A stretch of DNA of 58,283 bases, counting the filler, from Sphacelaria rigidula (Eukaryota), in assembly GCA_964200075.2 (NCBI GenBank). It is 7 parts of 7 records of this genome, joined end to end, with 100 filler letters (N's around TTAATTAATTAA, not from the genome) between each part and the next. Parts side by side here need not be neighbours in the genome. Positions count along the whole stretch, not along the records: positions 8,342 to 16,582 come from CAXNAA020011807.1; 6 more parts are not named here. One strand, given 5' to 3'. The notes under the pieces are model-generated. The model did no database searches, had not been told where the DNA came from, and saw only the letters and a program-made list of their open reading frames with translations. This document shows positions 270 through 49,689 of this stretch, in pieces. Made by a program: the position numbers and the translations under genes. Within the stretch, counting starts at the first letter, position 1. Each line of letters opens with the position of its first letter.

Positions 270-3200
270 GTGTACAGGGCGAAGAACAGGGTGACCCAAG
301 ATGTCGTTGCTCTGAAGAAGATACGGGTGCACAGCGAAAACTTCGGGGTGAGCTGATCCATCTTGGTGTACATGTGAAGATCTCATGTATTTGAAGTCCG
401 TCACCTGATTGAGCACACGGATTAAAGGCGCACGCTCGAATCAGCTCACATCTCTCTGCTCACCACCAGTGTTTCTTATGATCGCCCTTCGTCTTGGGTT
501 TCGAGAGTCCAATGTAACAACCCGCCAGAAAAGCAGGTGCTCAAATATGGTTTCCCTCAAAATGGCCAGTCGGGTCCTCCGAACGGGGGCAAAGAGTCAG
601 GGTAGCGTGTAGTATGCTCATCTCGAGATCCATAGCATGATGTAGAACGAGATTGGTATGTACATGGCCGCGCTGAACATTCATGTATGTCTTTTTGAGG
701 GCTGTAAGGTTGTATAGATGATGTCACCCGCGGTGCAGTTCTACAAACTTGCATTTGGACACGCCGTGCCAAGCTAACAAGCTATTCCCCAGTGTATCAG
801 ATATTTGGCCGCTCGCCCGTCTATGGTATATCTTTGGGGCCTTGACGCAAATCACGCTGAAGTGTGGCTTAGACCTGGCAACGTTCTTGAATCACCGAGA
901 TAAGGAAGATCGCAACTGCGTTGGCAGCGAGTCGATATTCTATTGCTGAAATAACACCTCTGCTGGGGGGGCGATGTCATCCCTGCCGCTCACGGTTCTG
1001 AGGTAATTCCTAATCGCACTGCAAATGCAGTGCATCTCCGAGCTGCAAACTTCGGTGAACCCCTAACTGAATGATGCTGTCTCCTTGTGTGTCTCGCTCA
1101 CCCGCTTCGGTATCGCGTTTGCCAGCTCCCAGTGACAGCGATTCGAGAAATCAAGATTTTGAACGAGCTATCTCATAGCAACATGGTGACGCTGCTTGAG
1201 GTTGTAAGCTCTATTGGCGAGGTGAGCAAAAAACAAAAAACATGCCTACATCGCAGCGGGAGCTAGCACGGAAAGAGCTCCTGGGTGATCGCATGCTGTC
1301 ACGCTGGCCGTTTCATGCTCTGCGATGCTTGATGCCGATGATTGCCTATGGAGCAACACAAGGTGTACGGAAGTACGTCCAGGAATTTTGTGTCCAGTCT
1401 GTTGTATGAGGTGCCAAAAGCGTGAGGAATGGACGTGGGACCAACCGACCAAAGTCGAGGGTCTTATGATCACCTGCGCTAGAAACGGTGATATCACAAG
1501 TCAAAAGTGATCGACAGTGGTGTGCTGCCCAACCGCATCTGCTAGACCGCCACATGTCAACTTGGCGCGCCGTTCTCGTCATTGATGATAGATGGACGAA
1601 GCTATTCCGCTGCTCGCTGCTCGCTTGCTTGCAGAAGGATGATGACGATGACGATGATGACGACAAGGACACGCCGCGAACGGATAGGCAGAGGAGAGGA
1701 AGCCTGTACATTGTGCTGGAGTACCTTGAGCACGATCTTGCCGGCTTGTTAGACCTCAACATCACGCGAGTATTTTCAACATTGACTCTGCTTGAGGATA
1801 TATCACGTTGGTATTGTACTGAGTGCAGCGATGAATAATGATCGAAAATACTGATGGAGTCATCCACTTTGCATTTCGTCGAACATCACTTGCCGTTATC
1901 GGTACGGGTGCCGTCAGCTACAGAGTCCACTTCGCTTTTGACTATAGCCTCTGAACCATTATGCATGTGCCAGAACTTTTGTAAAAAAGACCTTCGTCAG
2001 TATCGCAGCCGTAGTAGCCTAAGCACGCAGAGTGTCGTGGCAAGTGCGACGTGTTGAGTAGCTGAGGTGACGATCGTCCACCTCGCGCTGGTCGTCAGCC
2101 TCACGTGGAACATGACATTGCCAGGAAAGATTCGACAATTGAGATTTTCAATTTTAGGTCCACACTCCGTGTGCTGTCCCGAACCAGACTGCAATTTGCA
2201 TACACTTCACGATTCGTGCTGGCTGCTGACTTGAGTTCCTGCTGCATTCTGTTGTTTCTTCAGGTTCAGCGATGTCCAAATAAAGGGCATAATGAGGCAG
2301 CTGCTGAACGTTCTTGACTTCGTTCACTCAAACATGTACGTTCACCGCGACATCAAGTGCTCGAACCTGCTTATCGACAACAACTGTAGGCTGAAGGTTC
2401 GTGACGCGAGCATTCGCATGGTGTGAGTACTAATTACCACGTGATCCTGCACCGCGTAGTGCTTGGCGATGTGAGGCTCGGACGTAGACTCCAATGTAGA
2501 CTCCTGGCAATTCATGCGGTCATCTGCATGCAAACTCGGCGTCGGTGTTGTCGGTGTTGTTGCTTGTCAAGAGTTTACGTCACCAAGCCAGTATCCTGCT
2601 GCCTTCTCGCCTTTGGTGCATTTCTCCCACAGCTCGCGGATTTCGGCCTCGCACGGCGACTGAGTGATGTGCCTGCCGATCTCACCAACCGCGTGATAAC
2701 GTTGTGGTACCGACCACCGGAACTTCTGCTGGGTGCTACACGATATGGGCCGACTGTGGATTCCTGGGGTGTGGGCTGCATTCTGGCCGAAATAATCATA
2801 GGCAAGCCGCTTTTCCCCGCGAAGGTGGAGTTGGAGCAGTTGGATCTTATTTTGCAGGTGTGTCTGCGTGTGTTGCGTTTGTAGTGACATTTTTGGATCC
2901 ACCAGCTAGCGAAGGCCAGTATGGCACTGTCAAGTGCTGGTTCTTCATGCCGACTGTAATTCGGCCTTTTGCTTCCTTACGCAGTGGCACCGTGACACTT
3001 TTGGGAGAGAGTTGGACATCTTTGTCTTTGCAGAACGTGTATTTTCACGTTGAAATCAGTTCATACGTGTTAGCATTCGTGAGTATGCTTTCACTGGAAA
3101 ACCTTGTGTACTTCCCAATCAAAATTAGGGTGGACGGGTCTCAAAGGCAGCGCGAAGCAGACACGATTTTTGCCGTGCCTACCGCACCACGCTGCTATCA

Positions 3201-6200
3201 AAGGTTGGGAAGCGCAGAGTGACGAAGTCCTTGCCGCGCGGTAGGTACCACGTCACAAGCGATAGGAACAAAAAGGGAAAACGAACGCTGCGAGGGTGGA
3301 TGGATTAGCGAGGGAGTGCAATGATACAGGTTGCTGACAGAAGAACAACAAGCCTGTGACGTACTCGTAGATTCTCCGTCAATCAAGAACAACGCGATGA
3401 AAAATGATGTTTTTAGTACCGTATTCACCACACACCCGAAAGCTCACGCACTTGTCCATTTCGAGAACGCTCTCGCTATGCTATCAAATGTTTCAGACGC
3501 CGAGTGCATAGAGGGCGTTCACCGATTGCCGTGTGCGTTACCAACAGTGAATATTATCCTAGGGAAACCGAGGTCAGCGACTCGTACGACCACACCAATA
3601 GGCAGTGGAGCATGTTTGAAAAAGCCGATAGTACTGCACCGAATGAGTCTTCTTGCCATCCCTCTTATTTGTGTCCGACCCCGCTCCTTGAGTGGCGCGC
3701 ACTCGCTCTCAGGTATTAAGACCTGGGGACTGGGCGCGACTGATGTTAACTGATGTTAACTGATGTTGACGACATACGCCGTGCGGCGGCACTGTATGGT
3801 GACGCGTGGCAGTGCTTGGCCAGGGTTTTTGCAAGCCCTCACATTAGACAGGTAGAGTCACACGTTTCTTTTAACGTTGCCAATTTTATTGCGCAAATCT
3901 GGCGATGCCAACCCGATACAACCCTGCCACTCATAGGTTTCACCTGCGTATCAACCCCTTTCTTTTCTCGCCCTCTCTCTGGCTAGGTGTGCGGCACGCC
4001 CACGCCCAAAATATGGCCAGGGTACGATGAACTTCCGAGCTACAACTCTATGATGCCGTCGAAAAAATATCCGGGCAAACTGAAGAACCACTTGGTGAGA
4101 AATTGCGCTGGGAAACGATTTGAGAATTGCTGACTTTACCGTTCTCCAGACAAAGCGGCAAGCACAGTCGTGGGCGTCTCGGTGGACAGCTTGGATTGCC
4201 GCGTTAACTTCAAAACTGTGATATTTATTCGGCATTACAAGCCGTCAGCGTATCCCCCGCAGATTGAATACCGCAGCAGGTTGAGGGTCAGAGGCTACTC
4301 GTAGTTCAGGAAAGGACCCCTGGATGAAGTATACAGCCATCCCTCGCGCCATTTTTAAGGATTCGGGTACAAAGTTTTGTCCACATTCCTGAAAAAAAAT
4401 CGAGGTGGCCTTTGTCTGAGGTAATTTCCTTCACTCGTCTCACCGGTTCCGTGGGGTACGACCAACAACAACCCAGGACCCCAAGAAATGAATAAAATCG
4501 GCGGAAGATGACTGTGCCAAGACAACGCCAAGTCTGAGCTGTCCCCCAGGAACGTTGTGCAAGAGGTCGTCCTCGAACTCTCACAGGGGAGTGAGAAATT
4601 TTCCTAGAATATAACTCTTTCGAATGTGTGTTTTCATAAGGCAGGATTCCGATGCCCGAAATTCCACTGATTTGGCCAGAAGCGGTATCGCCTTGACTAA
4701 CCTCTTCATCATGGCCTGTGACGTTTCTCTTCGATTTTTGTGTAGGGTGCGAACACGCTCCGCCTCTACTGCGAATGTGTCTTAGTTATACAGAGCTAGA
4801 CATTCCCTGCCGCTACTAAAGAAAAAACGTGACGACGTCCGCATCTCCAGAAGCATCTCGAGAAACGGAACCATGAACAAGCGGCATGTGCTTCCGCTGG
4901 ATATTTTCGCTCCGCCAAACGTTGCATGCTTTCACACGTCGGACAGCTCATGAGCTACCTGGATATTACTTGTTATTAGAGTACTGATCCGGATCATGAG
5001 CTANNNNNNNNNTGAGCTAGCTCATTTGGCCACCATTTCCGTATTAGCTCCCAACAGCGATGGACGCCGAGCACGCCGTGTAGCGGGAAGGTAACGCTTT
5101 GGCTTCTCGGACACTGCTGTAACGTGTTTTGTGTTTTGGTACAATCGATCTGGGAGTTCTCTTCGATTACTTATTTCAGGTAGCTCATGAGCTGTCCGAC
5201 GTGTGTATGCTTTGAATGCCCTCTGTTTGAACCGCAGCTTGCTTCCTGCCACGACTCGGCACTGAGAATGCCACGCCACAGTTTCCATCCGAGATGTCCC
5301 GAGAGGTGGTGTGGTACTTCGCTGGTCTTGACTCGCTTTTCGTGTGAAAAAATGATGATCGGAAGGATCGGGGTTCTTTCGTAGACCAAGTCCGAACTTT
5401 TGCCGCCGGTAGTAATGGAGAAGTTGTCGTTCGTTTTCTGTTCTTGGCGGTGTCTTCCACAGACGGAATTCGCACGGAAGATTGGGAATGCCCATCTCAT
5501 GACTCCTGACGTTGTCGACCTTATTGAGCGTCTGCTAACCCTGGATCCGGCGAGAAGGTGGTCTGCAAATAAGGTATGTGCTTGTTCATGTTACTGGAAG
5601 GAAGGGAATGGAACAGCGTCAGCTGATTCTTGATGCGAATATTGATCTCGTCCTGAATATCTCAAGTTACGTATATTTTTTTCCCAACGCGTCAAGACTG
5701 TGAGTACCACGACTGTAGCCCTTCCCGGCTACGGTAGATGCAGCGAAACAAGATGCAACCTAAGGTCGACACGACCATATTTTTTTCGCACTGCGATTTC
5801 GCTTACTGACTTTCGTGCACTCTTTCTTATGTGCTTTGCCCTCTACCGTGCAGGCACTGAAGCAGGCCAATTACTTCCGAACAGACCCAATTGTGTCGGA
5901 TAGTACTGACCTGGGTGGATTGCAACTGCCTGAGCGCAATGGGTCATACCACGAGTATCAGACAAAGAAAAAGCGGAAACAAGATGGGCTAAATCAGCAG
6001 GAGGCGAAACGCGCGATTAAGAGGAAAAAGGTATGTGACAACGTTGGTGACAATTAAAAACAGTCGCGTACAATCCCCTGGCGTGCCTGTCTCGTGACTC
6101 GTAAGACAAGCTGAGCTGCAGCACCCCGCACGAAATCGACCAAGGGCTTCTCGCTGAGGGATGTTTTGACACGCACAAGAAAAGATGGAAGAAGTCGAAT

Positions 6201-8241: not shown

Positions 8242-8341
8242 NNNNNNNNNNNNNNNNNNNNNNNNNNNNNNNNNNNNNNNNNNNNTTAATTAATTAANNN
8301 NNNNNNNNNNNNNNNNNNNNNNNNNNNNNNNNNNNNNNNNN
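8242..8341. other. Artificial contig linker (N44-TTAATTAATTAA-N44)
   Basis: Six-frame stop linker, exactly 100 nt. Identical linkers at 16583-16682, 24924-25023, 33264-33363, 41604-41703 and 49944-50043. Confidence 0.98.
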
Positions 8342-8499
8342 GCAAAAAGTCCCCCCTAAACCCCGCCTCCGGGGTATGGATGTATGGCCCCCGCGACACC
8401 CCCCCCCCCCCCCCCATTCGAACTCCAGTTGAAATGCTCTGTGCCGAATGGTCCCTCTCGCTGATGTGCCGTTTTGCGGATTGATCGTGTGTGAAAAAG

Positions 8500-11400
8500 A
8501 TACCTTGATGAGTCCGGAGTACCCCTGACGAGCGACGGTTTTCCGGGCGTGGCCATGATGGAGTACAAGAATACCACCTCTAGTGTGGAAGAGCTGCACG
8601 TGTTCTTCTCCATTGGGTGGTTCGACTTGGGCTCGTGGGCATGGGTACACCATATTGTGGAGTGGGCCACGAAAGGTGTCTTCATGGGAGAACGCCGGTT
8701 CTACCTCGGAGCGGTGGTCGACGACTTGTTTGTCGCGACCAACGAGTTCTTGTACGATGGCGAATTCAACGAAGGGCCGGTGAGAACGTTTGACGCATCT
8801 GGGCAAGAAATGTTGAGTACTACAGTAGAACATACTACGTACAGGGTGCCGAATGCCAGTTGGAGAATAAACACGGACATTTTGTTCTGTCGTTATTCAC
8901 TTGATGCGATACTGAAGTTTACACAAACGTTCGATCAACCAAACGAACAGACGTGCTACGGCTACCCCGGTATCCCGATTCACTCTTGCCATGTATCCTT
9001 TACTTATTTTTCGTCAGTACAAAATGGTACTAAGCATGTGTTTAGCGTCAGCGGCGCAGTAGGTAAGCACCTTGCGTGTCGAGACTACTTGCGCCTGGCA
9101 AACCTCTCCCCTGGCGCTCCTCCTGCTGGCCCTGGGCATCAGGCCTCTTCCTCCGTCGCATGCGCCTCCGTGTATAAAAGTCAACCGTGCTCTGTCTTAA
9201 ACTGCAGGCGTATCGCTGCTCCGCAGAGGACTACAACAACCTAATCGACGTGCAAAACACCCTCAACATAAAGTATTCCTCACAAATCATCACCGAACAC
9301 GCCTTCAACGGGGCCGGTATCCTTCAAGAGGTGAGCTCCCCTTCATGGGGTCGCGAGTGACCGCGCCTCTACGTATGTAGTTTATGGAACCTTGAACTTG
9401 GTGCTCTCGTAACCACTTTCGCCGGATGCTGGAGTCATTGTTCGCGCGATGAAGTACGCAAACCGAAGGGTGGATGGCATACTACCGGTTCTCGTTGCTT
9501 TCGCAGTAGTGTAAGTGAGTTAGGGCATTGTCTTCGAAAGCCTGCCCATGACATGTCCCAAGTCAACAATTCATCAGTCAATTGCAGCTGCTGTTTCAGA
9601 GATTTGACTCAAGTCGTTGACCAGCCATGTGCCACACTTCCTCGCGTGCCCCCTACCCCACGACCTACCCGCTTGTGATCGTCTCCTTCCTGCGGTAATA
9701 CAGGTCGGGTCTTTGTACCAACCTCCATACGAGGAGACGATTGTCACCGTCAAAGGAACAAAGATGACGCCACCCGGTAAGTACGTCTACATTTGATTTC
9801 CTTCCAAGCATTAAATATCCCGACGCAAGAGACAGGTATACTCCCGAGCTTACGATCAACACCAAATGCATCTATTCCTTGCGTGAATCCCCCCCCCCCC
9901 CCTCATCCCATGAGTTCTATTTTGCGTTTAATTGTTTGGATTTCGTCCAGTGTTTCTTATGTTTTCAAATGTATATTTATTGTTTGCAGTCGTACGCGTA
10001 TCGGTGGGCTGTCTCAAGGTTACGTTGGCTCTTGCCAACCTCCCCCACGCACCCGCAAGTAATCAGTGCTTCGAGATGGACAAAGTTCTGGACTATTCGC
10101 CGCAAAACACGTTATAGTCACGATGATGAGGTATGGTAATGCATGAAAGAACCGCGTGCTCAGAGGACCGCATTGTAGTTCGAAACACCTCAGGATCGAT
10201 GTTTTTCAACACCAATCGGGCCAGCCCCTGCAGGGACCACGCCCCTGGCACTAGTCTCAACACTAACCTCAACCCTAACCCTGACCATGGTGAGGATCAA
10301 ATTCCGATGCGGCCCTCTAAGTACGCGGTCCTCTCATGCATTACAGTATACCATACACCCGCCCCCCCCCCCCCTACCCTTCAAATTTAACATTCTATTG
10401 GCTTGTACCCCCACTCGTCCGCACCGTCATTGTATCCGACGCCGTCCAGGTCTACAGAGTGTTGTCATCCCCCCGGACTACCTTAGTGTGAATGTGCCCC
10501 TCATGGAGGCGGAGCACGCAGCTGGCATATGGGACAGCGATGCTTTGCTACAGGCTGTGCTAGCTAATCCCGACGATGCCTTCATTGGCAGCCACACCCT
10601 CACTCATTTGTCTCGCGACGAGCTCCAAGCTTCAGATTGTAACGCCGAGGACGGGGGTGAGCCACATCTCTCGTTTCTTCAACGTATTCAAGTGAGAGTA
10701 TTCTCAATTGTTTTCGAGCGTTGCTCGCCCCCCCCGACTACTCAAAACGCTGCGATATCGTCTGGTTAAAGAACTGTGAAATGCTATCCTTCGAAGTCAT
10801 TCGGGTTGCTTGTCTCACGTTATATCGTAACGGGAGAATATCGACCACTTGCTCTCTCTCGAATGTAGTGGGGCAAAGCTGAGTGTCGGAATGGGGTCGA
10901 AACCGGGTCGTGAGATGATTGGTGCAAGTGAAGGCAGAACTAAGTATTCCGTTTACAACCACTCCCGACACAACCTCTTGTCCATGCCGACTATTCCCTC
11001 CTCTTTGATGTTTGCGCCAAACCTCGAAAAAGCACAGCCAATGCGCAAATCGCCGTAATATCGGGCATGTTCGACATGGACAACTACAACTGGCGCAGCA
11101 TGGTTTCTCCGGGCATCACCGGTCTGTTTAATGCCAACTGTCTCCAGTCTGGCGAGGCCAATCTCATGACATGCTACCCCGGTGACAATACCTACGACGG
11201 GGTGCAGACGGAAGTAAGCCTCGTGAACGAGGACAGCCAATTCCACTCCATCTACACTACCGTGGCTACAAACGGCGAGTGTCAACCCGAAGGCGACGGT
11301 GTCTAGTTGTATGCTATGGGCGGGATGCGGTGTGATCTCGCGTGTTTTTCTCATCTTGATTGTGTGAACGGGATATTCTCTGCAGATGTGGCGTTTTTGC

Positions 11401-13941
11401 GATGTGCCGGCCGCGAGGGGGGGGTGACGGAGACGATTGAGGTACGGTGCACCTGTGTCAAAGTTCCGTCTTTGGTTTAAGTGCGTCGTTGTACACATGT
11501 TCCTCGAATGACTCTTCCTAGCTAGGACAAGCCGCACTTTTGGGGAAACGTCTCCTCGATCTGAACAAATGTAAAGACTCGGATTATCCGAGTTCCTCTC
11601 ACAGACCCTTGGGCACCCTCTCTCCAACTATACAAATCCAATGAATCGACAGGGCATGCCGGCATGCAGATCGTGCCTCGCTTCGCCACCTTCGTCTACT
11701 TCAACTGTGTGACCGGCGAGTGCCTTGTGAATGAAAACGAGTACATCAGGCGCTTCGTCTGCGGCTGCTCGAACTTGGATCCTACAAACCCTGACCGCGG
11801 AACGTGCTCGGGCGTCGGCTCCGTGAACGGTTGCAACAGCGACGATGACATCATGTCCTTCGGCTCCATCGACGCCATTTACAAGGCCGAGTCTGAAACC
11901 ACGTCCCGTTACATGCTCATGGGTCGCAGGTGCGCACGTGTAGCGGTGTTAGATGCAAAGGTGCTGCCACACGACATGTACACATGGTCGAGCACTATCC
12001 ACATATACGAGTAGAACATTCACGGAATGCCTTCACAAGCACGCGTTTGAGTGTGTGAGCCCCATTTGTGACCTGCCTCCTGGCGCAGAGTCATCCTACG
12101 ATAGGGGGGGGGTGTTTTGGGCCCCTTCTTGCACGAAATTCCAAGGCATATCGTCCTTGAGATCAGCAACGGTTGCTCGAGCGAGCTTCTTATAGATAAA
12201 TAACGCTCATTTATAACGATTGACACCGTTATGAACCAACTACAAGCGCATCGCGAGTGTGGCTGGTCGTCTGACACACTTTTGAGCCTTTTTTTTTCGT
12301 GCAATCAATCCGCCCCCCCCCCTATCGTAGGATGACTCCGCAATGCTTTTTCGCCGTACTGTTATTCCCCTGCGTGATTGCGGCCAAACCCAGAGACAAG
12401 TACATGTTCCACCAGGCAAACATCATACCGGCCGATGACCTGGATGGTCAGTCGTCCCTGGAGAAGTGGTACGTGGACGTTATGGCCACCCTATCCAGCT
12501 TCGTCACCTTTCCTGTTAAGGTAAAAAATACACCCATCACTAGAGACTCCCGGAAGTAGCATGCGCGTAGGCTTGAGTAGGGCTTGCGGATATCCACCGG
12601 CAGATGTAGCGATGTAGTCTTCTGACCAATACTTCGTTCTGACACGCTCTCAGGTCGCCTACTCATCGTTTCCAATACCGTGCAGAGAGCATGACCACCA
12701 CCACAGTACCGGTAGACGACAAAAGCTCCCTGAATAGGACAAAACAATCCGCCCAAAGTTCAAACCACCAACCCCTTCTTACCCCGCCGGTACTGTTGAA
12801 CCTACAGTCTGTCAAGTTCGACGACCTGTGCCAGAACTTCCAAGAGCACGAAGCCTTGGATGCGGACAGCCCTGTCGTGACGGCTTCCGTAGACGCTACC
12901 GGTGCTATCGTGGGCATGACTCTGGAGTCCACGGGCGTCGCGGGTGTGATCCCGGTTACCGTGCCCACGTCGGACGCTGCCACTGTAAGCATTTTTTACA
13001 TATGGTTTTCTTCCAATATTCCCATAGCTGTTGGCTTCCATTGCTGCTGATTTGATCGAGTCATTGCGGTTGTTTTGGCTTTTTGTTTTCCGAATATTCA
13101 ACTTTCCGTAGTTCGTCCCTGTTGCATATTGCCCGGCCTCGTGTTGACTTCGTGTGGTGTTGATTCATTTCGTCTGCTTCCCCTCTCCCTTCCCCTCCCC
13201 CGTCCATGGTCGATTTGATATTTCCACGTGCGTCCGCAGATTTCTCTTGGCAGCTTGATTCCCTACAAAACAGAAACGTACGGATCGGATACTACTTTCT
13301 ACTTCACCACTGGAACGGCACCCACGCCCGCGCCTAAGCCTAGCGCCAGGTTCGTAATCACAGAAAAGCTCCATGCATGATATGACGAAATATTGAGACT
13401 GGGATCTCTACTGGCAATATATGAGCACACGCACGCGCGATCGTCCATACGTCTACAAGGTTGTGCATAGTCAGTGCTTGAACCACAGTATTGAATCGAC
13501 CAGGTTGCTTTCAACGCGGTTGCCAACGTTTTGACTGACGGGATCTGCTGTGCAATGATCATGCTGTAGTTTACCATACCATTCAATACCCCCTCCCTCG
13601 TCTTCTTGCTTCCCGACTACTACAGCGAGCTCGCACCGATTGACGTGACCATGATAGCCGTAGCTTCGGTCTCGATGGAGGAGCAAGAAGAAGCAGCCGT
13701 TGAAGGCGTTGAGGCCGCACAGGAGATCGCTGAGGTAGCAGGCGAGCTGGGCTTCGTTGCCGCCGATCAACAGCTCTTCGAACCAGACGTCATCGAAATC
13801 CTCGAGTCCGAAGCCATCGTGGAAATCGCCAGTACGGCCGGGCCCATAATCCCGAATGCCACCGACCCTTCGACTACCCGTCCGCCTGTCGAACTGGTTA
13901 CGACCGTTCTTCCCACTCCGGCCCCTACCGAACCTGTCTAA
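8500..13941 (+). CDS. agd3: Agd3-like (CE18 family) putative polysaccharide de-N-acetylase; 5'-partial, 10 exons, ~640 aa visible
   Basis: Phase-consistent exons: 8500-8779 (WATKGVFMGERRFYLGAVVDDLF), 9208-9330 (EHAFNGAGI), 9704-9776, 10450-10656 (SHTLTH), 11038-11274 (SPGITGLFN...GDNT...TTVATNG), 11653-11929 (GMQIVPRFATFVYFNC), 12394-12520 (DKYMFHQAN), 12808-12984 (SVKFDD...IPVTVP), 13240-13349 (ETYGSD), 13626-13941 (acidic, Pro/Thr tail, TAA). The motifs and their order match Aspergillus Agd3 as I recall it; no search was run. Confidence 0.88.
10135..10345 (+). mobile_element. MITE family B (211 bp, TGT..ACA TIR, 4-bp TSD), in an Agd3-like intron
   Basis: Degenerate TIR ggtaatgcatgaaagaaccgcgt / acgcggtcctctcatgcattaca, flanked by GTAT on both sides. 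Homologous to 34641-34851 and 38509-38713. Confidence 0.85.
12088..12338. mobile_element. MITE family C (251 bp, GAG..CTC termini, 4-bp TSD; Sola-like), in an Agd3-like intron
   Basis: Perfect TIR gagtcatcctacgatagggggggg / cccccccctatcgtaggatgactc, with the direct repeat CGCA on both flanks (12084-12087, 12339-12342). Confidence 0.8.
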
Positions 13942-15399
13942 TGCAGTGAGATATTCTGGTCATGTGTAAAGGCTACTACCTGTGCATGGATGCACCACCG
14001 CTGTACATGGCTGGAGTGCAGCTGCCTCTGAGTTTTCGAAGGCATTGACTCGTAGTATGCAGTGTACCCAAGGGGATCCGTGTCGATTTTCGGTGAATGT
14101 TTGCACGCCCGCCGTGTGACGGGTCGTTTGTTCCCTCGTGCACTCATGCTGGTTACTTCAAGTTCTGCAGTTTCGGCTTTTGGTCCATTGAGAGAGGCTC
14201 GCTTCGTTGAACAAGGGCATGAAGAAAACACTCGTTGTTCACAATTTGCCGCAACGCTTTACCAGTCCCCGGTGCCCCAGGGTCACGTTTCTGTGCAATG
14301 CGGTGTATTTCTTGATGGCGGTATCTCTTTCATGCGTGCACTCGTTCAAGTCGTTAGTTTGATAGGGACCGTGGATCAGGTTTCCGTCGGCTATGCGTAG
14401 GACAACGTGCATATAGCTGTGTAATATTAATTCTCAGCGCCCATTGTAAGATGAGCGTATCATTATTGGGACGGCGCTGAAGGTTACAGTTTCCGTTTTG
14501 TTATGGTCGAATGGGTTTGATAAATCCTCCGCGAACGCATCACAGGTGCGTATAGCTTTGCAGCACAATTCTCCAGGCAAGGGTGCCATAAAACTGTGGA
14601 AAATGGCGACAAGGCAGATAGCGCGCCGAACACGTTTGGTGGAAGCAAATGTAAAAAATACGGTAGAACACGAAAGTCGTGGAGTACACGCAAGATATGA
14701 AGAATAATTGAAAACTGGCGGAGAAGAGCAGAAAGGTGCGAGAGTTTCGCTGAAACGGATGTGTTGTGGTCCTCTACTTGTAAAGGGAAACGTATAGTCT
14801 GCGCATTCACACGGTTGGGTTAAGCTTGCTGGAGATCGAGTGGGTATTCAGCAGGCAATTGCCACATAGGGAGCGACACGTTCCCTGTGCAAGCAACTCT
14901 TGCTAGCGGGCAGCGCGTGTAGGGTTGCTCTAATGCTTCACGCTGTCACCGTCGGCCCGTAAATAGCCGACGGCAGAGAAAGTTTGCCGCCCATTTTCGC
15001 GTTTGTTGGGCTTCATCCGATGCTACTCATGGTTGCGCACCGATGATTATCTCAGATAGTCCTGATAAACCACAAACGTTTCCCTTTCAACAGAAGCTTC
15101 TCGTGTTTCCCCTCTTTTTTAAAAGAGGCATAGGATAGTGTAGTTTGTAACAAGTACGAGTTCTTGAGGCACCAGTACTCAAGGTTCTCATAGAATACCC
15201 AGTAATTTGGGCGAGCGACACTTTAGGTACTCTGCTGGACTACGAGTATTGAGCACTGAAAATTCAGTGCGGATTCGGAGCAACTGTGGCTAATTGTCGT
15301 ACTCTATCTCAAGCTCACTTCTTGAATTCTTCGACTGATTTGCGATCGGGGACAGTCTGCTAAGCGCAGTCGGGTACTTCTATAACGACGGAGAGTATT

Positions 15400-16769: not shown

Positions 16770-17696
16770 CAGGGGTGAAGAGGGGGGGGTCAACACCGGG
16801 ATACATAATGGTTAACTTGATTGACAGCCAACACACTTTTGGCTTAGAAGCAATTAACCCAGAGACAAATTGTTCTGAGAGAAGGTATGGCGCCCAACGG
16901 GTTAAGAATCCACGCTTTTGAGCGATTTTGGATGCAAGGAGCACGCCAGCGCAAACCTGGACCGACAGTATCACCGCTTGGACCTCCATTTGCCACGATT
17001 TACTTCATGCACTACGTGGTAAAAGACTCCAGGGGGCAGGACAGAACAAGCAAGTGCCCAAGACATCAGTATGCGAGACTTGACGCAACACGTACCAGGG
17101 CGTCATGTGCTCCTCAAAGCGTCGATTCGCTCGAAACAAACTGAAATCATGTCTGCCGCATTGTTTGGGTCACCACGTATTAACTTAACATGCTCACGTC
17201 GACGTAGTCATGGAGCGGGGTGTGGGGAACGCGGCGAACTGCTTACCGGCACGGAGGAGACGCAACATTCACGCCGAACAGCGACTCAGAGTCTCAGTCA
17301 AACAACACAGCACCAAGAGGATGAGCATCCATCCGTCCTGAGGCATCCGGATCATTCTCGGATGCGGTGTGGTTGGTGAGATAGATAGATGTGTATCACT
17401 TTGTTTCGCGGAGTACCTCCGCGGAATCTGCGGGAAAACAGTCAATACACATTACCACAAGCGACCCATGACAGACCAACCATGTATGTGAATAGTTGCG
17501 CAGCCGATACAAATTGCCAGCAGCTACCCGAGGTATGTCTCGTTACTGGGTATTTCGTGTGAACCAGAAAAAGATACCGTGAAAACCAACAAAAAACGTC
17601 GGTCTCTCGGCTGCTGCTGCCATCATGTACCCCTCCCTGAAGACCAGTACAATCATACGGCCTACTGTTCATCGCAACTGTCTCCAGATCGCTCAC

Positions 17697-20600
17697 CTCC
17701 AGCAATCTCGCTCTGGCTGATGAGCTGCTTCAACAAAGGCAGCAGATGGAGCAGCTCCTCGTCTGCAGTATCATCGAACCAGCTCTCGATCGGAATACCG
17801 TTATCGATCTGATTAACAACAATGTGAAAAGTTGGAATCGCCGTGGGAACGGAGAAGAACAAGTGGGGTGGCAGGGGGAGGCACAATTGATTAACCGAGG
17901 CAGAGATGAAACACAGCCCGCCGCGACCTTCACACCACAGCAAGGGTTGCTCCACAGACTAGGGACCTTCAGCACAAAGCGTAACCTCTTCCTCGTGTCT
18001 TTTTCCCATCATCGCATCAACCCCTCATTCAGACCCACCGTCGGAAGGCTGATGATCCCTGGGTAATGATGCATTCGACTTAGCTCGATAAAAGTCGTAC
18101 ATGACGTCACATCAATGCGAAGAAGAGGAAGTCCGCCCCACCATGATCTTCTAGACGAGTTTCTCGGGCTTCCACTACAAAACCATCATATCATGTATGT
18201 AGTATGCATGCATGCAGTCATATACGTATGCACGGACATGATATTAAACAAACTCCGGGTAAATTCTTGAAAATGTCAAGAGCTATTACCTACTGTACTC
18301 GAAACAAGCACACAGAGTTCTGCTCATCGCGCTCAAAGTGCTGTCGAAAATCCTTTAAAGACGGCGACCTTCTTGCATTACGATTTTTTGCTTCATCATA
18401 TTTTCAACTCTCTCTGGACAACTTTGTAGTTTGAAGGGATACACTGTTCTCATATCTTCCGCGGAATCGTGTCTACTTTGCAGTGTATGGTCGAGCAACA
18501 GATTGGCACTCTCACACTACGCCAAATTTTACGGAATCATTTGCCGTCACACTTTCAACTCCCCCCCCCCCCGGACAAAATTGCAGTTTAAAGGGATACA
18601 CCGTTCCTACATCTTCCTTGCAATTTTGATCGAGCAACAGATTACCACTCCTACATTCAGTCTGATGTCACCGAATTATATGATATACGACGACAAAGAA
18701 CGAGGCCACTTCAACCAGGGCACACGCCACAAGAGCAGTCACGATCGACACAGTTGTACAAAAATACCTATTATTCACCAATCAGAAGAGTTGCGTGCGA
18801 TTTTTTCAGGGAAAAAAAAAAAAAATCATGAATTTGCTTATACCTTATTTAGGGCAAACAGTATGTCATTGCGACAGGCCTCCGCATCAAATACCCAGTA
18901 CAACACCAAAAACATCAACGAATTTTGTAGTCCGCATTTCCCTCGATTATATATGATTTCTACTTTTCACTGCTTTGCCAAAGGGGCAATTATGTGCATG
19001 TACACCCTCCTCCACCCGACTGCTGGTGTATCCTCTTCTTTGAGGCAGGTCCAGGTCCCTCCATCCGACACCGCAGCCTCAATTGTTTTCGGCGTAGTCC
19101 ATTCGGCCGTGCAAGCATGTTTTCATACCCATCCCTTCTCTCATCCCCCCGTACATACTCAGGTGCTTTTCCTCGTCCATACAACAACAACAAGGGCGTT
19201 CAGCGTAGAATACTACACAGCTCACCTGAAAGCCGTAAGCATACGGCGAGTTGTCAACGATGGCCACCTTGGACAAATCTCGACCCAGCACATTTAGGTC
19301 CTTGAGATAGTTGCCTTCTAACGCCATACACGCGTCACGGTATAGTCGGTATCTGCCTCACGCCGACAAAGAGCGAACGGGGCATCAATATGTTCGTCCG
19401 AGAGAGATCGGAGGCGCAAGGAAAAAAAGAAAAAAAAACAGGCACGAGATCGGGACCCGGTGATCAATAGAAGAACCAACCCTTAGTGTCGTCACTATGA
19501 AAATATGGTGTGTCCTGGATAGACACACGTCATAATTTGTCCACTCGACCTTTCCAACAGTCTGGTGGGTTCACGCTAATCACCCTAAATTGTGTCTTTA
19601 GCAAATGCCTTCAGCGATGCCTACCCAGTTGCCGCATGCATGGTATCATCCTGACCGCCATGGACAACTGAAGAGGGAAACATACCCGAATACTTGTTCA
19701 AGACCCTAGTGGTGGCGCTGAGGGCGAATAAAGGGCGAAAATTTACGTCGACCAATCAGCAGCCTTAAAATTGTTCTGAAATTAAAAAATGCGGAGTTCC
19801 GAGCCAAATTTCTAGCCATTCTACAAATACTTGAATGTGCAATAACCGCCATCAGCTCGAGAACCTGACGGAAAGACAAATTTGAGAATCGTTTACATGG
19901 GATCGAGCTACACTCCAAACCGTGCCATTTCGGTGATGTGGGGGTTTTGGTGTCTTCGAGTTTCCACTAATGATACTCTGCACGGTTTTTCTTATCTGAT
20001 CACGCCAAACTTGCGAACTAGGTAGGAGTTGATGCTTCGAATAACAAATGAATCATTGAAAATAGTTCCAAGTTTTCTACGCCCTTCATCGGCTTCTGGG
20101 GGTCCCCGCGAGATGACCCGCAAGAAGTCGGTACAGAATGCTCGAGCATGACAAATTGATCATGCGTCCCGGCATAGTCCAAGGAACACTTGTACGAGAT
20201 GTCGTAGCGTGACACGAAAAAATGATGCGCTGCGATCATTTTGACGTCACAAGTACCCGAAAAGGCCGTTTCAGAACGATGAAAAAGTATTCCGAGTTTA
20301 AACCCTCCACGCCTCCGTAGTCGCACGAGAGCACAAGGCAGAACGCCGATTCTTGGGGTTCAACTCCGAAAAAATGCACGAAGATTGTAGGGGACATTTC
20401 GGAACTTTCAAAAATTGGTTTTTTTCCTTCCGCCGGATTTCGGGGGTCCAAGAACCGCATGTTACTCCCCAGGAACCTGGAACCCCCGAATCACCGGCGA
20501 GAATACAAAACGTGGGAAACTCAATTCCTCGGAAGCTTCGGAAAGCCTCAGAAATGCATGTGTGTAAATTTTTAGTCTTGACTCCAGGAATCGGCGTGAG

Positions 20601-34640: not shown

Positions 34641-34851
34641 TGTAATGCGTGAGAGGACCGCGTGCCTAGAGGACTGCACTGTAGTTTAAAATACCTCAGG
34701 ATCGACATTTCTCAAAACTGACCGGGTCGGTCCCTGCGGGTACCATGCCCCTGACCCTAACCCCAACACTAACCCTAACCCCAACCCTAACCATGAGGGT
34801 GTTCAAACTCCGATGCGGTCCCCTAAGCACGCGGTCCTCTCACGCATTACA
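34641..34851 (+). mobile_element. MITE family B (211 bp, 25-bp perfect TIR, 4-bp TSD GCGT)
   Basis: tgtaatgcgtgagaggaccgcgtgc / gcacgcggtcctctcacgcattaca, with GCGT on both flanks and internal CCCTAA-like repeats. Confidence 0.9.
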
Positions 34852-37158
34852 GCGTGACTGCTGTAGGCACCGTCGGAGATGACGCCGACAAGCTCGTCGA
34901 CGTTTTATCGCCGCAATAGCCGTCCTCTTACATCCGAATATCCCGATTGGAAATGTTGTAACTGAACTCGTAACATCGCTGGTGCTGACAGTCACGGCCG
35001 CAGGTGTCCTTACTCGAAAACCTCTATGCTGTAGTGGGCAGACTGTTCGTCTGAACGCCCATGACTTGAGCAATTCGTGCCTGGTGGGTGCTGTGCCCCT
35101 TTCTCATTGCACACGAAGCAAGATGCACATTTCAAATGGCCGAAATATTGGCATAGGGATCGGAACGGTAGCCGCCAATACAGCCACCAAACGCCTTTTC
35201 AACGACCATGCTTCATATACACGGCGTTCGAACTACTTGAGGTAACCGGTCGTTGACCTCACCTGAACTTTGTCGGAACAGGGAGAAGTTATATCTTAAC
35301 CACATGGCCGTGTTTCAACCGATTAGTCCACAACATGGGAGAAATCCATCTCACGTTCGCGCGGTCGGGCTATAATTGTAATATGAACACTTCACATTCA
35401 GATAACCTGACGTGATGTGAAATGCGTCGGCTCCGAGTTCGAGATACCTCTGACGAGTCGGGGGGTCGATAAAAGAAGTATCTAGCACACTTGGATACTC
35501 GGTGAGGTGCGGTAGCACTGATTTCGTTGGTTTCGATTTTTACAAGGAACTGCGCAACTCGAGTTCAAGACATTTACAGTAGAGATCAACTGGAACTTTG
35601 AGTTCGAGATATCTTTACTCGAAAGCGTTTCTGGTTTGCAATCGCCAGCTTTTGTCCGGGGTGATTGATTCCGAAGAAGCAAGTAACCCTCACTCTCCAG
35701 GTAAGTGGTGCCAGCGGACTAATTAAACGCCCTTGCTCGTACCTTGTGTGCGTACTGGCAAGGCGGACCTACAAAACACCTCCGCTACATTCATCTGAAA
35801 TTGAACAGATCCCCACGTGGAGAATTTCTTACGCTTTGTTCCTTGATGCCGGGAGCACCGTCCACTGCGCTTTGTATATAGAGTGAGCCTATTGGTGAAC
35901 ATGGTGGTGCTCGGCGCCGCCGTACGCATGAACCTCACAAATGCCGCCAACATGGGCATTCGGGACGGTGGTCAGTTCACGGCGCGCGCTGGGTCGTTGA
36001 CATGATTCGATTTCGGCCGTTGATGATGATCTGATCGTTTCCTTCTTCATCCACTTCCCTTGTCTCTGCCATACTCCACGTGTGTACTTCCCGATGCACT
36101 TGGGGAACCGTCAGGTCGTGAACGAGGGAGCTGATGCGCGAGGCGTCGATGCAGAAGAATTATGTGAGTGACACTTGTTATGGGTCGTCAAATTCACTTT
36201 GAAAATCATTTGACCCCGAGGGTGGAGAACCTGATAATTAGGTACGGTATCATTCTCTTTCATTGGAAGGCCCAGATGCCTCGTCCCGCCGGTAATCACA
36301 GGGCAAACTTCTTCTCGCTGTTTGAAGAACGTTTGCCGCGCGGCGATGATGTTCCGCATTAACGCGCGACACCCCTCTTCGTTTATCACCTGGTATGCAG
36401 CCAAATCTCCGCCTAGGTTTTTGATGTGAATTTGCGTCAATATCTTCATCTGAGAAGTTATGTGCGCCTTCATTTTCTCCCTCATTTTTCCGAGGAGAGC
36501 GAAGGCGCTCCGTAAAGGGTAGGCTCAAAATACGGGCAGTTGAAGCGTCACTGTTCGTAGTACGCTGAGATATTCGTGGTTTTCGGCGGTCGACACTTCA
36601 GGTACTCTGTAACGCATTGGTCCCATTCCTTCACTTGCTGATTTCGACTGGCAACTACCTCACGCCATACACATCCGGACCCTGATGGTAGGCTCTAGTT
36701 CCGTACAGGTATGCGCGTTTTTCAAAATTGAACTCGATTTTTTTTCATGATTTCTTTTTTTTTAGTCCCTTTAGGTTCTTTGAGCGCAAAATAGGCGGGC
36801 TTTATGCTCGTTATTCCCGTCGTTGTTGTGGCGTTGTGGCAGCATCCCTTCCCGAGGCGCACGTGTTATCATGAGGACAAGACGACAAGTTGGGCATTCG
36901 AAGTTGTGTTGATGTATAGCGAAGAAATGAAGCTCTTCGCTGCAGGTGTTATTGATTTTTGAGACCACAACCTGCACACCAACACCCCCACCCACGTGTG
37001 GAAACAACAAACGCCAGTACACTGACGATATTTGAAACAACAGTACGGCATTGTAGCCTCTAGGCTCGGGGGATTGCAGCCTTTGACCTCTCGCCCGGCA
37101 AGCTACAAGCCTCAAGCTACCACCACCACTTCCCCCCCGCATCATCTATCTTGTCGAA

Positions 37159-37440: not shown

Positions 37441-38508
37441 AGTTACAAACGCTGTCGTCACTCGTTGTCACTTCTCTCTGTTGGTGCTGCTGTTACTACC
37501 GCTCTCTCCTGTCCGCTGTACAAGTACCGAGTGTATTATCTATTTGATACATTATGAATTTTCGAAAGCAACATAGTACCGTGTGTATTGATACAAAGTC
37601 GAGCAGCCTGCTCATCAGACCCGCAACAAAAAAAGAACACGGAACATGACACTAAAAATTTTGAGTATTTTTTGGTGTTTGAGCCTGAAGCCTAACGTCT
37701 GTCGGCCTGTCTGATGACGTGAACCCAGCTCTGGCAAAGAGCTCGCGGAGGCTGCAGAATGTAGGTTGAACACTTGCTTGTGCAAGTAAAGAAATTGGTG
37801 TGAACTCGGCGCTCACTTGGCCGACTTCGAATCAAACACAATGGGTCCCTACTCTACAGAAAACTGATGAGCTGGTGGGCACACTTCGGTGGGTCGCTTT
37901 GGAGGGTAATAGCGTAGGGCTTTGTCAGTCTCTCGACAAAATATCACCGCTTATCCAAACTGTTCCTGCTTGGACTACTCTGAAAAAATGCTGGGTTTCT
38001 GTGAAGGAGCTATAGAGTGCGTGAGTTATTCATGATTCTATGAGACGAATATATCACCTCTTCGGTTACTACTACGATCTCTCTAACTTTGAAGATGAAC
38101 TGGTTTCGCCGCTAATATCGAGTATGTAGATTCGCTACTGATATTTTTTCAAATCCCAACGCAGGGAAGAAAAGTGAAGACATTTTTCTAGTGACGACTA
38201 GCTTTTTTTTGTCACGTCAACAAGGTAGGTGAGCATGCCCTTTCGAGACTTGTCCTCTCCAACTTTTTCACGTGAAACTGCTCACAGGATGGCAATCTCG
38301 GCACTCCTGCGAACTGTGATGGCATTATTTCTGAAGAGTATTATTGCACGCACTCAAAGGGTTGTTCAGTTGCAGCAGTCACTGTATCATTTTTACGGCC
38401 AACGTATTACAGTCGAATCAATTCGACCAAACCAACGATCTGGTGTTATTCTCCTTGAAGTATGCTAGCTGACGCGCAGTTCACATGAGGTCCGACATAT
38501 TGATACCC

Positions 38509-49497: not shown

Positions 49498-49689
49498 GTA
49501 CCCTCGTTTCTTGTTTTCCTCTCGAAACATTGTGCGCTGCCAGATGTCAACAAGATGAAAATTGTCAGCGGAAATGGGGGACGTTTGTCATTTTTCGTAG
49601 TCGGCGTTTTCCAATTGCTTTTCCACGTGGCACCGCTTATCCCAGTGAACGTTTGATTCCGAAGTTTGGGGATCGGGAGATTCTAGGCA

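Follow-up and report, generated by a model that had tools for sequence, protein, structure and literature searches.

An expressed, intron-rich Agd3-family deacetylase gene of the brown alga Sphacelaria rigidula

Agd3-type deacetylases and the locus in Sphacelaria

The closest described system is Agd3 of Aspergillus fumigatus (PDB 6NWZ), the founder of CE18, which also carries CBM87 and in which, in the excerpted text of Bamford et al. (2020), mutagenesis identified D377, D378, H510, H514, R613, M666 and H668 as essential. Bacterial Agd3 homologues have CBM87 and the CE domain in common with it and, like PelA, PgaB and IcaB (CE4-type), perform metal-dependent de-N-acetylase chemistry on secreted polymers, which is also predicted for the enzyme reported here. 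Its gene lies in the window, the whole stretch of 58,283 nucleotides of S. rigidula DNA (filler included) that was analysed, and shares with Agd3 the four catalytic motifs (CM1 to CM4) in the same order. Agd3 is a secreted protein, and the algal one probably is as well.

The differences from the known systems are considerable. The identity of Agd3 to brown-algal members is only ~19–26%, and it takes profile-profile or fold comparison to detect their CBM87_Agd3 and Agd3_C domains. The window protein has extra Cys-rich inserts and Phe for the Tyr of Agd3 'I-Y-Y-N-C'. Within the window the gene stands outside any GAG-type cluster, and brown-algal relatives instead carry WSC, extensin-like or GH114_assoc fusions. 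The bacterial homologues, according to Bamford et al., belong to operons with glycosyltransferase and GH114 genes, whereas the window gene stands alone, is eukaryotic and is rich in introns; in the tree a long stem, of 0.7 + 0.7 changes per column, sets the brown-algal clade apart from them. The first-pass annotation had named Gtb3, Sph3, Ega3 and Uge3 as partners to look for, but no domain of these types was found in the 235 ORFs of at least 75 aa in the 58 kb window; the neighbouring genes, a kinase and a NIF phosphatase, are ordinary eukaryotic ones.

Proteins of the same clade as the window gene include P0014 of Ectocarpus siliculosus (882 aa) and P0010 of S. rigidula, which belong to the 'Agd3 deacetylase domain-containing'/WSC-domain proteins. 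Compared with these, the window copy comes into view only where the CBM87-like domain ends and has its own acidic C-terminal tail, and its transcript, with ~700 nt upstream, is too short to encode WSC arrays as long as those found in some relatives. Agd3 homology in brown algae is not new: five Ectocarpus matches in Supplementary Data 1 of Bamford et al. (2020), one of them (882 aa) listed in the tree as 'Other', and the UniRef name of Ectocarpus members ('Agd3 deacetylase domain-containing protein') precede this work. The initial picture of a mainly fungal and bacterial family has to be widened to one that also occurs throughout the brown algae.

Gene structure, transcripts and intronic repeats

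Positions 8500–13941 (plus strand) comprise the ten exons at the 3' end of a brown-algal gene that is nuclear, expressed and a member of the Agd3 deacetylase family, which is represented in Pfam by Agd3_CE (PF25115) and is CE18-like in CAZy terms. The proposed structure of ten exons and nine introns was borne out by intron-free transcript-like contigs from three runs, X6 (4201 nt), X7 (3023 nt) and X8 (4132 nt), in which all ten exons are joined with 0 mismatches; in the DNA run X1 the introns are retained and none of the exon–exon joints is present. Eight of the introns are GT-AG and one is GC-AG. The features are as follows.

8500..8779, plus strand: exon A, the first visible in the window and not the gene's first, with CM1 and the last part of the CBM87-like domain; acceptor AG before 8500, RNA-contig joint 8779/9208
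9208..9330, plus strand: exon B, with AFNGAG inside; RNA-contig joints; Pfam PF25115 positions 22–62 matched (E=0.028)
9704..9776, plus strand: exon C, 73 nt; joint 9776/10450 in three RNA contigs, the transcripts fixing the end of exon 3 and the start of exon 4 at these positions
10136..10344, no strand assigned: MITE-like element in intron 3, 209 bp, with 48-nt inverted ends whose arms are 81% complementary
10450..10656, plus strand: exon D, with CM2; RNA-contig joints; 67% identity to Sphacelaria P0010 (tblastn, E=2.6e-34)
11038..11274, plus strand: exon E, with PGITGLFN and GDNT, followed by the GC-AG intron 11275–11652; 3' boundary set by transcripts (joint skipping 378 nt in three RNA contigs); PF25115 positions 161–233 matched (E=2.5e-6, 27.2 bits)
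11653..11929, plus strand: exon F, with CM3 and a Cys-rich insert; RNA-contig joints
12085..12341, no strand assigned: second inverted-repeat element, in intron 6, with 28-nt arms that are 96% complementary
12394..12520, plus strand: exon G, with CM4 (Y-M-F-H-Q-A-N); RNA-contig joints; PF25115 positions 292–340 matched (E=0.046)
12808..12984, plus strand: exon H, beta-rich C-terminal domain (Agd3_C-like); RNA-contig joints; 78% identity to P0010
13240..13349, plus strand: exon I, in which the C-terminal domain ends; joint 12984/13240 and a piece of 107–110 nt in RNA contigs; 77% identity to P0010
13626..13941, plus strand: coding part of exon J, an acidic Pro/Thr-rich tail (49% identity to the P0010 tail) with stop TAA at 13939–13941; the exon continues as 3' UTR past 14400, 13623–14400 being unbroken in RNA contigs

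The spliced model has an open frame of 641 codons without a start codon. The protein is uninterrupted, as first described, but the window lacks the 5' part of the gene and gives a truncated view, not the whole protein: the transcripts extend 673–733 nt upstream of position 8500, the X6 contig having a loose end before it. This upstream part was not located anywhere in the window; the 30 nt directly 5' of exon A in the transcript are absent from it, as is the conserved N-terminal domain of ~190 aa (best HMM E=4.6; nothing convincing in tblastn). These last 30 nt keep the reading frame and are homologous to relatives at the matching position, and the relatives and this piece of transcript point to a signal peptide and a CBM87-like domain in the window gene as well. 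The window also contains an unmasked 9-N gap at 5004–5012.

The intron-3 element, reported earlier as a MITE, has two further copies in the window, at 34642–34852 (80%) and 38508–38712 (77%), and in run X1 the contigs over its region add up to a depth of ~85,000 vs ~65 in flanking DNA. The summed depth of the intron-6 element in the same run is 61,000–93,000; a second copy was not found in the window.

Catalytic residues, fold and phylogeny

The motifs lie where they had been placed: the DD of CM1 is GAC GAC at 8720–8725, the Arg of CM3 is CGC at 11679–11681 and the His of CM4 is CAC at 12410–12412, and AFNGAG, PGITGLFN and GDNT are likewise present in the spliced translation. Only the S-H-T-L-T-H motif had to be extended, to 10590–10607, the span 10593–10607 given for it covering its H..H part (CM2, H-x3-H). 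The homology to Agd3 (CE18) with the full catalytic set was confirmed by several comparisons. Chance is excluded by collinear tblastn matches of brown-algal homologues to the window down to E=1.3e-47, and 4 of the 9 exon pieces match PF25115 in collinear order. Against 6NWZ, the translation of 8501–8779 matches residues 217–267 (E=0.0024) with the DD aligned, that of exon F matches residues 484–509 (E=0.0085) with the Arg aligned, and the homologue P0016 gives E=1.8e-28. Exon D alone has neither a Pfam nor a PDB match and exon G alone has no PDB match, so the assignment of CM2 and CM4 is based on family alignments, in which the His pair of exon D aligns with H441/H445 of P0016 and these in turn with H510/H514 of Agd3. 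Across an alignment of 35 proteins from brown algae, fungi and bacteria, D298, D299, H441, R551, M638, F639 and H640 are invariant, as are the M, F, H, Q and N of CM4 (35/35), while H445 is conserved at 90% or more; the window protein has every one of these conserved residues (D298, D299, H441, H445, R551, M638, F639, H640). By alignment, all the residues essential in Agd3 mutagenesis are kept, namely the catalytic base Asp, the metal triad Asp/His/His, the CM3 Arg and the CM4 Met and His.

The fold was tested on a proxy, the Pylaiella homologue P0016, which is 59% identical to the window protein. The top PDB match of its AlphaFold2 model (pLDDT 86.9) is Agd3 (E=1.8e-40, TM 0.81 over the whole chain), and the three-domain Agd3 fold is thus kept in the modelled homologue, in agreement with the original assignment. 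The second-best match is the N-deacetylase domain of animal heparan sulfate NDST1 (E=1.8e-14, TM ~0.42), likewise a de-N-acetylase of a secreted glycan, with identity of ~10% and a sulfotransferase domain that is absent from the window protein; brown algae are not known to make N-sulfated glycans. PelA is also among the fold matches. In hhalign the N-terminal domain obtained a probability of 85–97% vs 0.1% for the control, and the family C-terminus matched the fungal/bacterial one with a probability of 94.6% (E=7e-8; control 0.1%). Complete homologues have signal-peptide-like N-termini, and the family has 9 or more conserved Cys. Many brown-algal members are fused to WSC and some to GH114-associated domains, GH114_assoc (PF14741) accompanying Agd3_CE in 3 of the 7 brown-algal-type proteins of one scan and in 1 of the 17 proteins of a second.

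PF25115 scores were 135–158 bits in all six homologues of one scan and 127–169 bits in all seven brown-algal-type proteins of another, where the fungal control P0057 was the eighth; the brown-algal values are far lower than the 144–763 bits of 17 other representatives. The Pfam CBM87 and Agd3_C models were not matched in the scanned brown-algal members, and these low scores and missed models indicate that their substrate cleft may bind something else. Mazeas et al., in their expert CAZyme table, have a single CE18 entry for brown algae, which suggests that most brown-algal members fall below CAZy's own criteria.

In the search for homologues, all 34 matches that carry a name are from brown algae. 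The phylogeny, which had been recommended at the outset, places the window gene in a monophyletic brown-algal clade (SH-aLRT 100) as sister to Sphacelaria P0010 (support 100); the protein identity is 76.5% to P0010 over 459 aa and 54–61% to Ectocarpales members. Several paralogue clades are present in the tree and the family occurs class-wide, including the early-diverging Discosporangium and Choristocarpus. The gene belongs to a class-wide multigene clade and is not an isolated case.

Host origin and possible substrates

The N-terminal domain and the 30 nt missing from the window, and the 9-N gap, might raise the suspicion that this is no functional algal gene but contamination by a fungal or bacterial contig, the product of a recent transfer, or a pseudogene copy cut short at its 5' end. 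This reading is extremely unlikely and largely refuted by the spliced transcripts, which continue in frame and with homology upstream of exon A, by the open frame with all catalytic residues, by the closest relatives, which are all brown-algal and include one as similar as P0010, by the host high-copy repeats in the introns and by the eukaryotic neighbours. In keeping with the original proposal of a gene integrated in the host, the gene is a real host nuclear gene, spliced, expressed and brown-algal, and not a fungal contaminant.

It very probably encodes a carbohydrate deacetylase of the Agd3 family that is active, secreted and the alga's own. The product would be a secreted, disulfide-rich, metal-dependent hydrolase in which a long cleft, made up by the CBM87-like N-terminal domain and the (beta/alpha) CE domain, would hold an extracellular glycan chain, from which acetyl groups would be removed. 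As the leading candidate for the chemistry we tentatively put forward de-N-acetylation of an amino-sugar (GalNAc-type) polymer or glycoconjugate in the algal matrix. Deacetylation might then give the polymer cationic patches by which it would adhere to surfaces or to the alginate/fucan wall with its polyanionic charge, and the amplified brown-algal GH114 enzymes would be the matching hydrolases. According to Bamford et al., agd3 and GH114 consistently co-occur and are functionally coupled. Counting against this reading, brown algae have almost no GH135, the table of Mazeas et al. giving 5 rows (4 of Discosporangium and 1 of Tribonema), and no partner gene was found in the window. The GH114 family is amplified in brown algae to ~5 genes per genome, which makes the GalNAc-polymer idea plausible, and together with the GH114-associated fusions in some brown-algal Agd3-like proteins it lends indirect support to the GalNAc-polymer/adhesion pathway; this pathway and horizontal transfer are treated here as hypotheses. 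Among the literature matches listed, none deals with a brown-algal galactosamine polymer, judged by title and the start of the abstract; one of the matching papers concerns coral exudates.

CE4 includes acetylxylan O-esterases with the same metal-dependent mechanism, and O-acetylation is common in brown-algal fucoidans. Both points count in favour of a de-O-acetylase acting on the alga's own matrix glycans, e.g. acetylated fucose-containing sulfated polysaccharides and not an amino sugar, and tuning the charge, sulfation access or gel properties of the matrix. Agd3 is described as a distant relative of CE4 by Bamford et al., the divergence between the brown-algal clade and characterised Agd3 is strong (26% identity), the lack of Pfam-level CBM87 matches is compatible with a changed substrate, and no amino-sugar polymer of brown algae appeared among the matches listed. 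This alternative is nevertheless doubtful: the characterised close fold relatives (Agd3, the NDST1 N-deacetylase and PelA) are all de-N-acetylases of amino-sugar polymers, and the amplification of GH114, whose only cited activity is on alpha-1,4-galactosamine, favours a GalN-type substrate, as do the GH114_assoc fusions. It is still less probable that the enzyme is secreted with GH114 against Pel-, GAG- or PNAG-type matrices of epiphytic bacteria and fungi, in surface defence or microbiome control. Bacteria and fungi do produce such substrates (Bamford et al., in excerpt), Ega3 (GH114) disrupts microbial biofilms according to the title of a cited reference, the families are multi-copy and diversified into several paralogue clades, as expected of defence-related genes, and a synthase partner was not seen near the gene within the window. 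In fungi, however, deacetylation raises polymer adhesiveness according to the same excerpts, which would make it an odd weapon; the fusions to WSC, a wall-stress sensor module (Denoeud et al.), suggest a role in the alga's own wall, and the class-wide presence down to Discosporangium and Choristocarpus fits a core matrix function.

Family membership and catalytic residues

Agd3, the founder of CAZy family CE18, is a metal-dependent enzyme that removes N-acetyl groups from the alpha-1,4-GalNAc of galactosaminogalactan. The first-pass annotation had placed the gene at 8500-13941 (plus strand) in this family, CE18, and both the profile search and the comparison with the crystal structure of Aspergillus fumigatus Agd3 (6NWZ) agree with the predicted homology, all four catalytic motifs being recognisable in the deduced protein. 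Four of the nine exon pieces matched the Agd3_CE model (PF25115) in collinear order, at profile positions 22-62, 161-233, 237-261 and 292-340, with scores of 13.9, 27.2, 19.6 and 13.1 bits (best E = 2.5e-6); each alone falls below the cut-off of 27.6 bits and their rough sum is about 74 bits. The other five pieces had no match in Pfam. A homologue from the same species (P0010), 76.5% identical to the window protein, scores 137 bits against PF25115, and five other homologues score 135-158 bits.

Aligned with 6NWZ, the first exon (A) sets its Asp-Asp pair (GAC GAC, 8720-8725) against D377/D378, the catalytic base and a metal ligand, of the first catalytic motif (CM1; E = 0.0024), and the sixth exon (F) sets the Arg codon at 11679-11681 against the Arg of the P-R-W motif, which coordinates the catalytic base (CM3, R613; E = 0.0085). 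The exons bearing CM2 and CM4 are too short and gave no match singly against the PDB (the CM2 exon at E<=10); the assignment of these two motifs rests on three alignments, namely that of the window protein with a Pylaiella homologue (P0016, 59% identity), that of P0016 with 6NWZ (E = 1.8e-28), and one of 35 sequences. By this route the H-T-L-T-H at 10593-10607, which on direct reading is part of an S-H-T-L-T-H spanning 10590-10607, aligns with H441/H445 of P0016 and, through these, with the metal ligands H510/H514 of Agd3, and the Y-M-F-H-Q-A-N of the window protein (His codon at 12410-12412) is the same as the Agd3 motif holding M666 and the catalytic acid H668. The positions previously assigned to the Asp pair, the Arg and this His are all correct. 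In the 35-sequence family alignment, which covers brown-algal, fungal and bacterial or metagenomic proteins, D298, D299, H441, P550, R551, M638, F639, H640, Q641 and N643 (P0016 numbering) are invariant and H445 is kept at 90% or above. The residues whose mutation is reported to abolish Agd3 activity are D377, D378, H510, H514, R613, M666 and H668 (Bamford et al. 2020, PMC7229062), and the catalytic apparatus of the window protein is, as judged from its sequence, intact.

The AlphaFold2 model of P0016 (pLDDT 86.9, pTM 0.88) is a proxy for the window protein and not its own structure; its best PDB match is Agd3, across all three domains (E = 1.8e-40, target-normalised TM 0.81), followed by the N-deacetylase of human NDST1 and then by PelA. 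The comparison of a predicted structure with Agd3, which had been proposed as a check on the homology, gives a whole-chain match for the modelled proxy. The Pfam CBM87 and Agd3_C models had no match in the brown-algal proteins scanned. In hhalign comparisons the N-terminal CBM87-like region reached a probability of 96.9% when the exon-A part was included and 85.4% when it was left out, and the Agd3_C-like C-terminal region reached 94.6% (mismatched control, 0.1%). The alignments and the model support the presence of a diverged CBM87-like N-terminal domain and an Agd3_C-like C-terminal domain in the brown-algal family, whose complete relatives have signal-peptide-like N-termini and whose cysteines are conserved.

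Transcript structure and the 5' end

A tblastn search of the window with homologues gave nine collinear blocks from 8486 to 13869 (E down to 1.3e-47), and the enumeration of splice sites gave a ten-exon open frame. In a word search of public sequencing runs, four DNA-like runs of one organism shared 0.42-0.93 of the words and one 'algae metagenome' run shared 0.77; four further runs shared only about 0.30, which is near the exonic share of 1927/5759 nt. Contigs of the DNA run X1 and of the runs X6, X7 and X8 were compared over 8342-14400. Each of the latter three runs yielded a single long contig (4201, 3023 and 4132 nt, respectively) that matches the exons with 0 mismatches and skips all introns; in X1 the introns are covered and none of the exon joints is seen. 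The run records of X6-X8 only guess at RNA, and it is from these intron-free contigs that we infer them to be RNA runs. Since the contigs join all exons, the gene is expressed and the ten phase-consistent exons and nine introns originally proposed are confirmed, with two boundaries corrected. The enumerated model was wrong at the joint of exons 3 and 4, where the transcript adds two residues, and at that of exons 5 and 6; the transcript joints replace both.

Exons (A-J) and stop codon of the deacetylase gene according to the transcript joints in X6, X7 and X8
8500-8779, plus strand, exon A
9208-9330, plus strand, exon B
9704-9776, plus strand, exon C
10450-10656, plus strand, exon D
11038-11274, plus strand, exon E
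11653-11929, plus strand, exon F
12394-12520, plus strand, exon G
12808-12984, plus strand, exon H
13240-13349, plus strand, exon I
13626 onwards, plus strand, exon J
13939-13941, plus strand, stop codon; the 3' UTR extends past 14400

The corrected open frame comprises 641 codons. Its introns, of 255-673 nt, are eight of the GT-AG type and one, intron 5 (11275-11652), of the GC-AG type, with the same joint in all three transcript contigs. Runs of C occur in many introns (8398-8415, 9889-9902, 10364-10377, 12312-12322), and the DNA contigs break or cross-join there.

The gene is 5'-truncated within the window. Exon A opens at an acceptor site and the three contigs extend 673-733 nt further 5'; the window holds the CE and C-terminal domains, and the N-terminal domain would be encoded by this upstream part of the transcript. 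The 30 nt of transcript just 5' of exon A keep the reading frame, and their translation can be aligned with the homologues at that position. Neither this 30-mer nor either of its two 16-nt parts occurs in the window or in the metagenome contig collection, an HMM built from the N-terminal region that 20 homologues conserve (about 190 aa) had no match among the 1988 window ORFs of at least 20 aa (best E = 4.6), and tblastn at E<=5 found no 5' exons in the window. Possible locations of the missing exons are the DNA before the window start, a gap of 9 N and, in part, the masked blocks of 8242-8341. Paired blocks of 44 N recur every 8340 or so nt, the pair at 8242-8285 and 8298-8341 being just upstream of the gene; the 9-N run at 5004-5012 breaks this regular pattern and is probably an assembly gap, which makes it a candidate site of the missing exons.

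The brown-algal clade and its possible substrate

A search with exon E found 34 proteins at E<=0.001 among 79 candidates, and every named match is from a brown alga (Sphacelaria, Ectocarpus spp., Pylaiella, Scytosiphon, Undaria). With P0016 as the query there were 62 proteins at E<=1e-5: 48 of brown-algal type (42-100% identity), including those of the early-diverging Discosporangium and Choristocarpus, and, after a gap, 14 CBM87+CE proteins (22-34% identity), with a fungal and a Pseudomonadota MAG protein among them. A quick maximum-likelihood tree, built from 51 rows, unites the 39 brown-algal-type rows in a single clade (SH-aLRT 100) with a long stem and several old paralogue groups inside it, the window gene being sister to P0010 (support 100) beside a WSC-bearing Ectocarpales group. 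The outgroups were flagged for long-branch joins and deviant composition and the tree fixes neither root nor donor; horizontal transfer of the gene is a hypothesis. When 1.84 billion representatives were searched with a profile, 1336 relatives passed E<=0.001, of which 178 also passed E<=1e-30. All 17 non-brown-type representatives scanned have the canonical CBM87+CE arrangement, eight of them with Agd3_C as well, and score 144-763 bits against PF25115, as compared with 127-169 bits for the brown-algal members. Because of these lower scores we regard the brown-algal clade as a diverged branch, at the sequence level, of the Agd3 family.

The family had been thought unexpected in algae, a view that earlier listings weaken. 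The text of Bamford et al. (2020, PMC7229062) names homologues in bacterial and fungal species; its Supplementary Data 1 includes five hits from Ectocarpus siliculosus and others from chlorophytes (Monoraphidium among them), and its tree list holds, as 'Other', an Ectocarpus protein of 882 aa, the length of the E. siliculosus protein P0014. In UniRef the Ectocarpus members are labelled 'Agd3 deacetylase domain-containing protein' or 'WSC domain-containing protein'. As the databases already label the family, the gene is one more member of it and the homology itself is no discovery. The searchable literature on brown-algal walls does not discuss the family: no literature match joins 'Agd3' with a brown alga (preprint supplements, which lie outside this search, may hold more), and, by title, none of the matches for CE18 and algae concerns brown-algal CE18 and none of those for galactosaminogalactan, algae and GH114 concerns brown algae. 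Membership of the clade in CE18 at the CAZy level is uncertain, since the expert CAZyme table of Mazeas et al. (2024, PMC11468063) has for brown algae a single CE18 row, a Desmarestia herbacea fragment. Brown algae hold several ancient paralogue clades of Agd3-like enzymes with intact catalytic residues that have escaped discussion in that wall literature, and it is this family, more than the single gene, that deserves notice.

In fungal GAG and bacterial Pel-like systems the partner genes are co-located, whereas the window gene stands without such partners among the ORFs scanned. A Pfam scan of the 235 window ORFs of at least 75 aa outside the gene, from which short exons could escape, found no glycosyltransferase, GH114, GH135 (spherulin-4) or epimerase; none of Gtb3 (GT4-type synthase), Uge3, Sph3 (GH135) and Ega3 (GH114) is co-located within the ORFs of the 58-kb window, and the gene lies outside any GAG-like cluster within these 58 kb. 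At the genome scale, the annotation of Mazeas et al. (2024, PMC11468063) gives about five GH114 genes per brown-algal genome (the term itself occurs 78 times), up to 16 GT4 genes, and five table rows for GH135, four from Discosporangium and one from Tribonema. Denoeud et al. (bioRxiv 10.1101/2024.02.19.579948) note that in brown algae GH114 is markedly amplified and the WSC orthogroups are expanded. According to Bamford et al. (2020, PMC7229062), agd3 is coupled in function to GH114 in both fungi and bacteria. The sole activity cited for GH114 is on alpha-1,4-galactosamine. The GH114_assoc module (PF14741) is fused to Agd3_CE in three of the seven brown-algal-type proteins scanned (P0042, P0046 and P0051; the eighth protein scanned was the fungal control P0057) and in one further representative (P0132), with PF14741 scores of 45-79 bits across the four. 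These fusions are gene models and may represent either a domain-level link to GH114 or merged neighbours, i.e. adjacency. When the GH114_assoc part of P0046 was used to look for the module among GH114 proteins of brown algae, the query alone was recovered.

The gene product would be a secreted metal-dependent deacetylase that binds a matrix glycan along its CBM87-like/CE cleft and acts on it there. As its substrate we favour, at somewhat below an even chance, an amino-sugar, GalNAc-type polymer or glycoconjugate, because the characterised structural neighbours in the fold search with P0016 are all de-N-acetylases, because Agd3 and GH114 are coupled in fungi and bacteria and GH114 is amplified in brown algae, and because of the four PF14741 fusions. 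Against such a substrate it counts that brown algae are not known to contain a polymer of this kind, that they nearly lack GH135 and that the clade is strongly diverged; for the same reasons, removal of O-acetyl groups from acetylated glycans of the alga itself is a serious rival. Among the literature matches listed for galactosamine in brown algae there was nothing relevant, the match examined being concerned with coral. Action on microbial biofilm polymers, also raised in the first-pass annotation, is a lesser rival.

If the GalNAc-type reading is followed to its end, brown algae would possess a cationic matrix polymer that has so far escaped detection, of the GalNAc/GalN type (GAG- or Pel-like) and with part of its N-acetyl groups removed, as a glue or anchor, a proposal that we consider rather improbable. 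Its remodelling toolkit would then consist of the WSC-linked Agd3-like family present throughout the Phaeophyceae and of the amplified GH114 enzymes, the two families sharing the GH114-associated module in some proteins, and the resulting polycation might glue the polyanionic alginate/fucan wall or anchor spores and holdfasts to surfaces. The GalNAc-polymer/adhesion pathway is put forward here as a hypothesis. The amplification in the same genomes of GH114, for which only that one activity is cited, makes the question a concrete one for the whole family: what role do Agd3-like and GH114 enzymes play in brown-algal walls, and has an amino-sugar polymer been overlooked in the matrix or adhesive? 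Were it to exist, the textbook composition of the brown-algal wall would change, with a bearing on bioadhesion and biofouling.

Host origin and surroundings of the gene

Contamination, fungal contamination included, is ruled out by the spliced host transcripts, the high-copy host repeats in the introns, the brown-algal nearest relatives and the ordinary eukaryotic neighbours (a kinase and an NIF phosphatase). The integration of the gene in the host, previously argued from its introns and a shared repeat, is borne out by these four lines of evidence. The 235-ORF scan yielded only Pkinase, NIF, weak VATC and weak PAP_fibrillin matches.

Neighbouring ORFs with Pfam matches in the window
2405-2881, plus strand, protein kinase ORF upstream of the deacetylase gene on the same strand (PF00069, E = 1.3e-16, profile positions 138-206)
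17665-17958, minus strand, NIF / CTD-phosphatase-like ORF (PF03031, E = 4e-7, profile positions 123-156)
19082-19357, minus strand, NIF / CTD-phosphatase-like ORF (PF03031, E = 9e-12, profile positions 83-126)
49321-49653, plus strand, sub-threshold PAP_fibrillin match (PF04755, E = 0.0039, 17.6 bits against a cut-off of 22)

The two PF03031 ORFs are consecutive domain parts of one downstream neighbour on the strand opposite to the deacetylase gene. The inverted-repeat element of intron 3 (10136-10344, 209 bp) has further copies at 34642-34852 (80%) and 38508-38712 (77%), and since the X1 contigs sum to a depth of about 85,000 over its region, as compared with about 65 over unique DNA, it is a MITE-like family of very high copy number. 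A second inverted-repeat element, in intron 6 (12085-12341), has arms of 28 nt, 96% complementary to each other, each opening with a G/C homopolymer run; no second copy occurs within the window, and the X1 depth of the element is comparably extreme.

A stretch of 26 aa encoded at 50776-50853 (plus strand) resembles the part just past the H-x3-H motif, with about 42% identity to many paralogues (E about 1-5). It has an in-frame stop and neither neighbouring matches nor a Pfam match, and was rejected as a second copy of the gene; we treat it as a chance resemblance or as a tiny relic of another copy.
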